Sequence record: OP688485
Strand: one strand, 5' to 3'
Origin: Escherichia phage EP_H11
DNA length: 64,000 bases
Made by a program: the position numbers and the translations under genes. The notes under the pieces were generated by a model. That model did no database searches, was not told where the DNA came from, and saw nothing but the letters and a program-made list of their open reading frames with translations. Below, piece by piece: positions 11,343 through 12,422 of the stretch (position 1 is its first letter; each line of letters opens with the position of its first letter).

Positions 11343-12422
11343 ATGAAAATTGCAGTAACTAACTTTTCGCCATGCAGCGATAAATCCATCATCGCCAGTA
11401 ACACTCTGGCATCCTGGTTAGCCTACGGACTTCAGGCAGACTTGCTGGACGATACTCCTAAGTTTGTTAAGGCTATGGAAGATGGCACCAAATATGACGT
11501 GATCATCGCCGTCAATGGTGTTCCTACCTTCTGTAAGTTCCGTGATGAGATGTATAAGTTCTGGGTAGACCAGGCGGACCTCGGAGCTAAGTTCTACTGG
11601 ATCGGTCAAGATTATTCGTCAAAGATGCGTATCCAGGGTCCGCAGTGGCGACACATCACAGCAGTTACGACATTTAAAGTAGTAGCAGCATTCGAGCGTA
11701 CTTCCTGGGGTAATCAGTACTCCCCTAGCGAAGAGAACTATCACCACATTAACTGGAACCGTCTTACCTACGTTCCTGGTCGTAAGCCTCGCTACGGATC
11801 ATCTGATAAACCAGACAATAGCCTGCTGTATTACGGTGCTGCTCGTGAAGGTCGCTTCCATAAGTTCACTCAGTACTTCTCCCAGCAGGATGGTCTGGAA
11901 CTGTTTATGTCGGTGCCTAGCTATAAAGCTCAGATGTCTATCGCTAAACATACTGGTGGTTTGGCAGGATTTGACGGCTACGAGCAGGAAAACTGGGAAG
12001 AGCTGGATCCTAAAGAACGTAAGTGGCTGGGACCTGCTGCTCCTATTAACTGGCTGCCTAAGTTTAAGCTATCAGAGATGCTGGACGAAGTGGCTAAATA
12101 TGCAGCGGTACTGCTTATCGAAGACTGGAACTCCAGTAATTCGTTCTATACCAGCCCACCTAACCGTTATTACGAATACCTGAGCTCTGGTACTCTGATG
12201 CTGGTGGATAAAGATGCCGCTGGAACAATAATCCGGAGCGGCGTCCCCGAAGAGCTGCTGGCTCCTCTGATCGTCTCCAGTAATGCGGAGATTGCAGAGA
12301 AACTGAAAGATCGTGATGCTCTGCTGAAACATCAGTATGAGAATCTGTATCTGCGCAAGGATTACGCGCAAGAACTTCGGTATGAAGTAATCGATTACTT
12401 TACCAAAGAAGGTATTCTTTAA
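11343..12422 (+). CDS. DNA beta-glucosyltransferase-like GT-B enzyme (T4 Bgt family)
   Basis: Blocks collinear with my recollection of T4 Bgt: MKIAVTNFS / MKIAIINMG; YDVIIAVNG / YDRLIVVNS; LLYYGAAREGRFHKF / VIYGGSFRSGQRESK; AAVLLIED..NRYYEYLSSGTLMLVDKD / AALIIGD..LRVWETMASDAVMLIDEE. Confidence 0.6.
   Translation: MKIAVTNFSPCSDKSIIASNTLASWLAYGLQADLLDDTPKFVKAMEDGTKYDVIIAVNGVPTFCKFRDEMYKFWVDQADLGAKFYWIGQDYSSKMRIQGPQWRHITAVTTFKVVAAFERTSWGNQYSPSEENYHHINWNRLTYVPGRKPRYGSSDKPDNSLLYYGAAREGRFHKFTQYFSQQDGLELFMSVPSYKAQMSIAKHTGGLAGFDGYEQENWEELDPKERKWLGPAAPINWLPKFKLSEMLDEVAKYAAVLLIEDWNSSNSFYTSPPNRYYEYLSSGTLMLVDKDAAGTIIRSGVPEELLAPLIVSSNAEIAEKLKDRDALLKHQYENLYLRKDYAQELRYEVIDYFTKEGIL

Follow-up and report, generated by a model that had tools for sequence, protein, structure and literature searches.

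The gene at positions 11343–12422 of a 64,000-nucleotide stretch of the genome of Escherichia phage EP_H11 (accession no. OP688485; the whole stretch is referred to below as the window, and represents 64 kb of a genome of roughly 111–116 kb) encodes a true but remote homolog of the β-glucosyltransferase (BGT) of phage T4, beyond the reach of single-sequence searches. The encoded protein belongs to a sister family that has the fold of BGT and lies outside the T4 BGT family proper. It is reasonably probable that this protein is a DNA glycosyltransferase working in a hypermodification pathway derived from 5-hydroxymethyluracil (hmU), and uracil is much more likely than cytosine to be the hydroxymethylated base of this phage.

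The sugar-modified 5-hydroxymethylcytosine (hmC) of the T-even phages is the classic DNA hypermodification, and the characterized thymine hypermodification pathways of phages add amino-acid-derived groups. To our knowledge, hmU with an O-linked sugar (base J) has been reported only from kinetoplastids and organisms related to them, in which the responsible enzyme is an unrelated one of the GT-A type.

Homology to T4 BGT

Pairwise BLASTP comparison of the EP_H11 protein with T4 BGT produced a collinear alignment of 228 aa with 25% local identity (E = 0.004, for this single comparison). When a profile built from 87 sequences of the family was aligned with T4 BGT using hhalign, the match extended end to end over 290 columns (score 72.4, Prob 96.6%, E = 5e-10), and reversed and shuffled BGT sequences, which served as controls, gave scores of 11.7–19.4 (E ≥ 0.07 for the shuffled sequences). 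The hidden Markov model (HMM) of the family also detected BGT with 35.3 bits in hmmsearch with the filters switched off (--max).

Several other searches did not reveal this relationship. There was no BGT match at E ≤ 10 in a phmmer search of PDB with the EP_H11 protein, BGT was missed when PDB was searched with the family profile using the default filters of hmmsearch, tblastn of BGT against the window did not recover the gene, and no match for the protein was found in PHROGs or NCBIfam. Two PDB matches, to YgaP (phmmer) and to Rab5 (family profile, default filters), were judged spurious.

An earlier note on this DNA had listed four blocks as collinear with T4 Bgt. The BGT strings it gave agree with the actual T4 b-gt protein sequence, and three of the four pairs were recovered by the computed alignments (BLASTP and hhalign), namely (EP_H11 protein/BGT) YDVIIAVNG/YDRLIVVNS, LLYYGAAREGRF/VIYGGSFRSGQRE and AAVLLIED...NRYYEYLSSGTLMLVD/AALIIGD...LRVWETMASDAVMLID. 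The N-terminal MKIA block is not decisive, as hhalign sets M1 of the EP_H11 protein against M8 of BGT. The alignment as a whole is better than chance, as judged from BLASTP, from hhalign with its reversed and shuffled controls, and from hmmsearch. The membership of the T4 Bgt family that the note had implied did not hold, since the Pfam model of T4 BGT, PF09198, matched neither the EP_H11 protein (E ≤ 0.1) nor any of its 87 relatives (E ≤ 0.01); T4 BGT itself, the positive control, scored 325 bits. The sole Pfam match of the EP_H11 protein is Glyco_trans_1_2 (E = 0.01), and T4 BGT shows an equally weak match to this family in its C-terminal part.

Predicted structure and putative active site

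The AlphaFold2 model of the EP_H11 protein generated from the 87-sequence alignment had a pLDDT of 91.7 and a pTM of 0.89 (an earlier model, generated from 3 sequences, was unusable, with a pLDDT of 41.5). It superimposes with a TM-score of 0.99 on an independent BFVD model of the ortholog from Escherichia phage vB_EcoM_IME392 (IME392). The model has a GT-B fold, in which two Rossmann-like domains are combined and the C-terminal one holds the nucleotide-sugar site. Foldseek analysis against PDB placed T4 BGT entries at ranks 1–6 (E = 3e-12 to 1e-10); the next GT-B enzyme followed with E = 1e-7, four orders of magnitude weaker. The nearest solved structures are those of the two T4 DNA glucosyltransferases, which outrank all cellular GT-B enzymes, and the structure-based identity to T4 BGT is 15–17%. 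The matches include the D100A mutant of BGT with UDP-glucose (PDB 1NZD).

Residues Y163, G165, R168, R171, D261, R275, Y277 and E278 of the EP_H11 protein are invariant in all 87 relatives, and their counterparts in BGT, as identified by BLASTP and hhalign, are Y186, G188, R191, R195, D258, R269, W271 and E272, respectively. Residue D90 (Asp in 82 of the 87 sequences and Glu in 5) pairs with D100 of BGT. From the BGT crystal structures we take R191, R195 and R269 to grip the pyrophosphate of UDP, E272 to contact its ribose, and D100 to be the catalytic base. By analogy, R168, R171, R275 and E278 may be considered putative UDP-binding residues and D90 a putative catalytic base. Since the columns corresponding to the UDP site and to D100 of BGT are conserved across the family, the nucleotide-sugar chemistry has very probably been retained in the EP_H11 protein.

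A lineage-specific, acidic insertion of about 50 residues (residues ~190–245) is shared with the closest relatives of the EP_H11 protein and not with most of the family; model confidence is low at residues 207–213 and 228–231 of this region. The ratio of nonsynonymous to synonymous substitution rates (dN/dS) is 0.04 in comparison with IME392 and 0.06 in comparison with a metagenomic relative of 75% identity, which demonstrates that this is a functional gene under strong purifying selection.

Uracil as the probable hydroxymethylated base

The earlier note had drawn attention to a dCTP deaminase, a dUTPase and an enzyme of the thymidylate synthase (TS) fold, and had seen no T4 gp56-type dCTPase in the window. 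All three genes were identified (Table 1), and tblastn with gp56 gave a best E value of 0.81 within the 64 kb. Sequences similar to T4 gp42 (dCMP hydroxymethylase) are likewise missing from the window (best tblastn E = 0.15).

The TS homolog carries Asn at the column of N177 of E. coli ThyA, as do dUMP-using enzymes; in the same alignment T4 dCMP hydroxymethylase has no Asn at this position. Beyond IME392 and Acinetobacter phage Ab1-TPeters, its closest relatives in cultured phages are encoded by ViI-like Ackermannviridae (44–46% identity), and one of them is annotated as a deoxyuridylate hydroxymethyltransferase. As judged from these sequence features, the TS homolog is a probable dUMP hydroxymethylase rather than a methylase. 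Other TS homologs have been described that make 5hodCMP (PMC13326640); this 5-hydroxycytosine route was set aside, since the enzyme encoded in the window is of the dUMP type and closest to the ViI-like enzymes.

The assignment of hmU is favored because the dUMP-type TS homolog is combined with a dCTP deaminase, a dUTPase, a YfbR-like nucleotidase and an adjoining gene of the amino-acid:DNA transferase (AADT) type, and because hmU-making genes are found next to members of the family in general (see below). The preference of the note for uracil over cytosine is therefore well supported, and the hmC alternative is disfavored. Of the "glucosyl-hydroxymethyl-uracil (base-J-like)" DNA that it named as possible, the hmU part is supported; a plain glucosyl product is the simplest possibility, and the tailoring genes of the locus suggest more.

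Distribution of the family and gene neighborhoods

In a k-mer-indexed protein search, the single sequence retrieved 2 relatives and a profile retrieved 4, and an exhaustive HMMER search was needed to recover the family. This search identified 289 cluster representatives at E ≤ 1e-3, mostly of about 300 aa, so the family comprises at least 289 clusters; 87 of the representatives were used to build the family profile. Members were found in viral contigs and metagenome assemblies. No member was detected with a strict pattern in bacterial and archaeal genomes, each species being represented by a single genome, which is weak evidence of absence; these results are consistent with a virus-only family.

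A scan of IMG/VR provided 80 loci, for which all open reading frames (ORFs) were clustered and the cluster representatives checked against Pfam. In 75 of these loci the glycosyltransferase (GT) belongs to the main cluster. A TS homolog and/or an AADT gene lies within 8 kb of the GT gene in 46 of the 75 loci, which often also contain a radical-SAM/SPASM protein (SAM, S-adenosylmethionine), an HD nucleotidase and PolA. In 18 of the 75, a Tet_JBP oxygenase (PF12851, E = 6.9e-18) and a ParB-like gene are found within the same distance, forming a tight trio of abutting or overlapping genes in the order ParB-like, Tet_JBP, GT; among the recurrent neighbors in these loci there is no AADT, kinase, GT-A partner or cytosine methyltransferase. 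The two types are mutually exclusive (both in 0 and neither in 11 of the 75 loci). Hence, an hmU-pathway gene from one of two unrelated routes is present within 8 kb of the GT gene in 64 of the 75 loci. Considering the family viral loci, AADT homologs occur within 8 kb in 38–43 cases and within 100 bp in 15, and a 5′-deoxynucleotidase homolog co-occurs in 19–27.

ParB-dependent phage Tet_JBP enzymes have been reported as thymine dioxygenases, and GTs were the commonest neighbors in that study (PMC13229309). Of the arguments available for hmU-containing DNA as the acceptor of the family, the strongest is that two unrelated hmU routes each occur in combination with this transferase.

In 22 loci, the gene of a radical-SAM/SPASM protein of about 343 aa directly adjoins the BGT-like gene or overlaps with it (e.g. 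L023, position 9565–10593; also L003, L024, L036, L040 and L041). Several loci contain a ParB-like gene, a radical SAM gene and a GT gene with no recognizable TET/JBP or TS homolog, which may be a sign of a third route or of coupled tailoring.

Genetic organization of the modification locus

As shown in Table 1, the BGT-like gene is one of a series of genes on the plus strand that occupy the region between about 6.4 and 16 kb without interruption. The next gene, of the AADT type, starts at position 12422, so that its start and the stop codon of the BGT-like gene overlap. The hairpin preceding the ribosome-binding site (RBS) of the BGT-like gene is not followed by a T-run and is therefore not a typical intrinsic terminator. 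The 5.7-kb DNA region containing the modification cluster (positions 9600–15300) is 93.6% identical to that of IME392, the sole match among 50,697 phage records. A tblastn search of the same records with the EP_H11 protein also returned IME392 alone, the only cultured carrier found, whose "hypothetical protein" shows 98% identity.

Table 1. Features of the EP_H11 window related to the modification locus and nucleotide supply.
Feature	Position	Strand	Remarks
Class I SAM methyltransferase, 246 aa	6420–7160	+	Pfam Methyltransf_25/31/23
302-aa protein	7262–8170	+	directly 5′ of the BCCT gene; no family match; 70% identical homolog at the same position in contig L085
BCCT-family (betaine/carnitine/choline) transporter, full-length	8174–9556	+	Pfam PF02028, E = 1.6e-91; kept in IME392
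PIG-L/LmbE-family de-N-acetylase, 203 aa	9643–10254	+	Pfam PF02585, E = 3.4e-14
344-aa conserved partner protein, probable GT-A-type glycosyltransferase	10261–11295	+	directly 5′ of the BGT-like gene
7-bp hairpin AGGCTGT...ACAGCCT, 9-nt loop	11305–11327		between the stop codon of the 344-aa gene and the RBS of the BGT-like gene
GGAG Shine-Dalgarno-like motif	11330–11333	+	9 nt 5′ of the ATG of the BGT-like gene; sequence reading
BGT-like GT-B glycosyltransferase, 359 aa	11343–12422	+	ATG start
aGPT-Pplase clade 1/AADT-type protein	12422–13393	+	Pfam PF18723, E = 4.4e-35, whole protein
P-loop kinase, 244 aa	13471–14205	+	AAA_28, weak dNK/Thymidylate_kin; PHROG thymidylate kinase
TS homolog, probable dUMP hydroxymethylase	14202–15275	+	Pfam PF00303; phrog_3676
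HD-domain YfbR-like 5′-deoxynucleotidase	15359–15958	+	Pfam PF12917, E = 1.6e-14; NCBIfam 5′-deoxynucleotidase under cut-off
Family-A DNA polymerase (PolA), 1099 aa	18909–22208		polymerase domain only at residues 766–1001
dUTPase	56040–56510	+	Pfam PF00692, E = 2.4e-35
dCTP deaminase	56781–57404	+	Pfam PF22769, E = 1.1e-23

The 344-aa protein encoded immediately upstream of the BGT-like gene has no match in Pfam, PHROG or NCBIfam. Residues R14, D106–D108 and G187-E188-D189 are invariant in its family, and a comparison of the family profile with PDB gave 13 matches, all below the threshold, 9 of which were GT-A/GT2 enzymes aligned at the N-terminal nucleotide-binding region. On the basis of these sequence similarities, it is probably a GT-A-type glycosyltransferase. 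The PIG-L protein retains intact HHDDE and HQDH metal-ligand motifs in its translation, and its best NCBIfam match, under the cut-off of the model, is BshB1 (bacillithiol N-acetylglucosamine (GlcNAc)-malate deacetylase). The weak best matches of the methyltransferase are O-methyltransferases; NCBIfam gave a UbiG-like match and a weak match to MftM. The BCCT transporter, located inside a DNA-modification cluster, may serve for the uptake of a compound used in the modification.

The relatives of the AADT-type protein detected by tblastn in ViI-like phages are annotated as aGPT-Pplase clade 1. The title of PF18723 ("5-hmdU DNA kinase, helical domain") would point to a protein other than aGPT-Pplase; this assignment was overruled by the annotation of the ViI-like relatives.

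The P-loop kinase does not match PF18748, and a ViI-type DNA kinase for 5-hydroxymethyldeoxyuridine (5-hmdU), termed 5-HMUDK, was not recognizable among the window genes scanned. The same scan revealed no TET/JBP dioxygenase, no pyridoxal-phosphate (PLP) enzyme and no radical SAM protein. Relatives of the kinase in cultured phages were found only in IME392, Ab1-TPeters and Ralstonia phage RP13; the kinase gene adjoins that of the TS homolog in Ab1-TPeters, and about 8 kb separate the two in RP13. The protein may be either a kinase of hydroxymethyl-dUMP (hmdUMP) or a 5-hmdU DNA kinase, and the adjacency of the kinase and TS genes would fit an hmdUMP kinase better than a DNA kinase of the ViI type. 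The long N-terminal part of PolA would fit the subfamily of PolA proteins fused to a uracil-DNA glycosylase (UDG)-like domain, encoded by phages with hypermodified thymidine.

Metagenomic relatives of the locus

Four metagenomic contigs (L085, L088, L089 and L090) share with the window the order topoisomerase, modification genes, and then TS, primase and helicase. The identities of the encoded GTs to the EP_H11 protein are 75% (L085), 39, 37 and 31%. The 344-aa partner is encoded in all five contigs of this lineage (window included), with two paralogs in 2 of them. The kinase and the TS homolog are kept in the window, L085 and L090; contigs L088 and L089 do not reach this far. The remaining genes are distributed unevenly: the PIG-L de-N-acetylase is present in the window, L085 and L088, the BCCT transporter and the 302-aa protein in the window and L085, and the methyltransferase in the window and L088 (51% identity). 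In L090 the GT gene lies next to those of the kinase and TS homolog, and there is no AADT or PIG-L gene.

In three of the contigs, a pair of genes encoding a phosphatidylserine-decarboxylase-like (pyruvoyl) enzyme and an ATP-grasp ligase is located beside the transferases (L085, position 3750–5263; L088, 6422–7962; L090, 1684–3241), which suggests an amino-acid-ligated, decarboxylated decoration. The window carries the methyltransferase and the transporter in place of this pair. Since the accessory genes vary among the contigs and the 344-aa protein and the GT are constant, the core of the lineage consists of two putative transferases together with the supply of hmdU, and the tailoring enzymes are changeable.

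Proposed pathway and alternative explanations

In the proposed pathway, dCTP deaminase and dUTPase would supply dUMP, which the TS homolog would convert into hmdUMP. The P-loop kinase, together with host kinases, could take hmdUMP to hmdUTP, the HD nucleotidase may clear the competing dNMP (a role inferred for it), and the phage PolA would then put hmdU into DNA instead of T. We infer that DNA is the acceptor of the BGT-like enzyme, which would act after replication and flip the modified base of phage DNA into its interdomain cleft. Residues R168, R171, R275 and E278 would hold the UDP of the donor and D90 would serve as the general base, so that the sugar would be attached to the 5-CH2OH oxygen of hmU; by analogy with BGT, the anomeric configuration would be inverted, resulting in a β linkage. 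The GT-A-like 344-aa protein would add or extend a sugar, possibly after the BGT-like enzyme, and the PIG-L enzyme would strip an N-acetyl group, implying that an N-acetylhexosamine (HexNAc) is transferred somewhere and is thus a presumed donor sugar. The methyltransferase may cap the glycan, and the AADT-type enzyme may modify part of the hmU sites differently. The outcome would be sugar-coated thymine positions blocking restriction and other nucleases.

The logic of a transferase followed by a deacetylase is known from the pairs BshA/BshB, MshA/MshB and PIG-A/PIG-L. The product of this locus is probably more complex than plain base J, since the presence of the GT-A-like partner, the PIG-L deacetylase, the methyltransferase, the AADT-type protein and the BCCT transporter suggests a tailored glycan. 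Glycosylation of hmU is plausible for an enzyme with the BGT fold, because T4 BGT is able to glucosylate hmU in DNA (PMC4111573); the titles of the PDB entries matched by Foldseek include T4 α-glucosyltransferase crystallized with hmU DNA.

Direct O-glycosylation of hmU by the EP_H11 enzyme itself comes close to an even chance and falls slightly short of it, as a number of observations weigh against it. PF09198 models the acceptor-side N-terminal domain of BGT and is unmatched, and therefore the DNA/base-binding domain is the diverged, least conserved part of the protein. The isoelectric point (pI) of 5.7, compared with 9.0 for T4 BGT and a family median of 8.8, is unusual in an enzyme clamping duplex DNA. 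The overlap of the BGT-like and AADT-type genes is a translational link, the second putative transferase is constant in the whole lineage, and the polymerases of the IME392 type group with those of SP-15, YerA41 and Carin-5, phages with sugars on a linker plus phosphate and not on hmU directly. All of these, the acidic pI included (which would fit an acceptor other than bare DNA), would be in keeping with a second-step transferase that glycosylates a side-chain hydroxyl originating from the AADT/kinase reactions, or extends a sugar added by the 344-aa protein. The frequent proximity of AADT homologs in the family points in the same direction, and it is suggestive that the invariant R, DDD and GED of the 344-aa family resemble the R...DDD...ED motif of the base-J-glucosyltransferase-like phage GT-A enzymes (Pyle et al.). 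Such a function is nevertheless rather unlikely: the 18 loci in which ParB-like, Tet_JBP and GT genes are the only recurrent ones have no AADT, kinase or GT-A partner, L090 keeps the GT without an AADT gene, and the closest solved structures are those of the two enzymes whose acceptor is the hydroxymethylated base as such.

Could the protein be a generic GT-B enzyme that, during infection, glycosylates proteins, lipid or cell-wall precursors, or small molecules, and that lies among replication genes by chance? Its acidic nature, its sole Pfam match to the generic Glyco_trans_1_2, and the lack of a neighboring base-modification enzyme in about 65% of phage GT contigs (Pyle et al.) would agree with this. 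We regard it as improbable, since T4 BGT itself has the same weak Pfam match, the T4 DNA glucosyltransferases outrank all cellular GT-B enzymes structurally, the gene is packed tightly on one strand with those of the TS homolog, kinase and AADT-type protein, and hmU-pathway genes of two unrelated routes accompany the family in most of its loci. Still less credible, and in our view very improbable, is a T4-like function, i.e. β-glucosylation of hmC. The homology to T4 BGT speaks for it, and genes for a dCMP hydroxymethylase and a dCTPase could lie in the genome beyond the 64-kb window. However, neither gp42-like nor gp56-like sequences are found in the window, the sole TS homolog seen is of the dUMP type (it has Asn at the position of N177 and is most similar to the ViI-like dUMP hydroxymethylases), dCTP deaminase and dUTPase drain dCTP towards dUMP, the adjoining AADT-type gene is specific to thymidine hypermodification, and no cytosine methyltransferase occurs among the recurrent families near the TET/JBP-type relatives.

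The role in an hmU-derived pathway may be extended to a bolder proposal, which we consider speculative and rather unlikely in its entirety. The BGT-fold family would do in phages what the base-J glucosyltransferase does in kinetoplastids, namely O-glycosylate hmU in DNA, and its substrate would come interchangeably from a TS route before replication or from a TET/JBP plus ParB route after it; in the lineage of EP_H11, the first sugar would be a HexNAc, de-N-acetylated on DNA by the adjacent PIG-L enzyme, then extended by the GT-A-like partner and O-methylated, so that every thymine position would bear a glycan of cationic amino sugars. If so, this would be a DNA modification not yet described, in a phage growing on E. 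coli.

The identification of this gene places a large, otherwise uncultured family in phages infecting E. coli (IME392 and EP_H11), which makes its function directly testable. If the protein is an hmU glycosyltransferase, it would explain the resistance of such phages to sequencing and restriction, define targets for type IV restriction and other modification-dependent defenses, and provide a new enzymatic tool to tag hmU in DNA.

Other features of the window

A second cluster of the glyco type is located at positions 41609–45002 and encodes a DUF7217 protein, two weakly MptE-like proteins, a GT1-family glycosyltransferase (43414–44382) and a 209-aa protein. The β′ subunit of a multisubunit RNA polymerase is split between two genes in swapped order (26582–28096 and 29676–31244), with Rpb1 domains 3–5 encoded 5′ of domains 1–2. 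The window also contains genes for an Acb1-like anti-CBASS protein (32054–32560) and a NADAR-domain protein (53010–53669), as well as a PolX-like (pol beta thumb) gene adjoining that of an NAD-dependent DNA ligase (37272–40053).

Comparison with known systems

T4 BGT (PF09198, CAZy GT63; PDB 1BGT, 1C3J, 1J39 and 1NZD) and the EP_H11 protein share the GT-B fold and are of similar length (351 and 359 aa, respectively). Equivalents of D100, R191, R195, D258, R269 and E272 are conserved in the EP_H11 family, and both genes are located near that of a TS-family hydroxymethylase. Unlike BGT, the EP_H11 protein has an insertion of ~50 residues, an acidic pI and no PF09198 match. The genes around it would provide hmU rather than hmC, and also code for another putative transferase, for a deacetylase and for an AADT-type protein.

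Metavirome GT-B DNA glycosyltransferases of families GT53, GT66 and GT94 have been described by Pyle et al. (2024; Cell Rep 43:114631; bioRxiv 2023.12.21.572611), who found BGT-like GT-B enzymes by HMM mining next to ThyS (~28%) or 5mYOX (~10%). These enzymes resemble the EP_H11 family in their BGT-like architecture, in a catalytic Asp aligned to D100 and in the same two genomic contexts, but the characterized ones act on 5hmC produced by a methyltransferase and TET. The same study reported phage GT-A DNA transferases with R...DDD...ED[YF] motifs, similar to the base J glucosyltransferase. In pelagiphages of the HTVC023P type, TS, aGPT-Pplase1, 5′-deoxynucleotidase and glucosyltransferase genes occur together (PMC9599517).

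The thymidine hypermodification clusters described by Lee et al. (2018, 2021) for ViI, M6, PhiW-14 and SP10 likewise contain a dUMP hydroxymethylase, an aGPT-Pplase1/AADT protein and a 5′-deoxynucleotidase near PolA; their radical SAM partner is common in the metagenomic relatives of the EP_H11 protein and not in the window. The characterized pathways of ViI and M6 differ in attaching groups derived from amino acids and in having no glycosyltransferase, and the ViI-type 5-HMUDK has no recognizable counterpart in the window, as described above. The pathway proposed here and that of base J (kinetoplastid JBP1/2 plus the base J glucosyltransferase, JGT) both comprise the formation of hmU in DNA followed by O-glycosylation, and the module of Tet_JBP and GT is found in 18 relatives of the EP_H11 protein. 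They differ in that JGT has a GT-A fold (Pyle et al.) and the EP_H11 protein a GT-B fold, in that the hmU of the window would arise before replication from a TS homolog and not from a dioxygenase, and in that the product is probably tailored further.

IME392 and EP_H11 are listed among phages with related long PolA proteins, in the RP13-like group, for which a long family-A polymerase with a UDG-like domain at the N-terminus, a dCTP or dCMP deaminase and a TS homolog are characteristic; IME392, which carries a dCTP deaminase and a TS homolog beside the long PolA, has a polymerase that places it with phages whose thymidine is hypermodified by sugars (PMC12686479). Carin-5 is similar in carrying glycosyltransferase and GlcNAc-deacetylase-like genes near the polymerase (PMC12686479), and the TS homolog and kinase of the window have few relatives, which include those encoded by RP13. 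In SP-15, YerA41 and Carin-5, unlike in the pathway proposed here, the sugars are attached via a pentyl linker and phosphate (PMC12686479). A tblastn search of SP-15, YerA41, Carin-5 and RP13-like phages detected no member of the BGT-like family, and the glycosyltransferases of SP-15 are only distant structural matches to the EP_H11 protein (TM-score ~0.5).

No hmU-directed phage glycosyltransferase has been characterized in the literature surveyed. The association of GTs with TS or T-dioxygenase genes had already been noticed in metavirome and pelagiphage surveys; the EP_H11 protein represents an unnamed sister family with the BGT fold, probably re-targeted to the hmU pathway.

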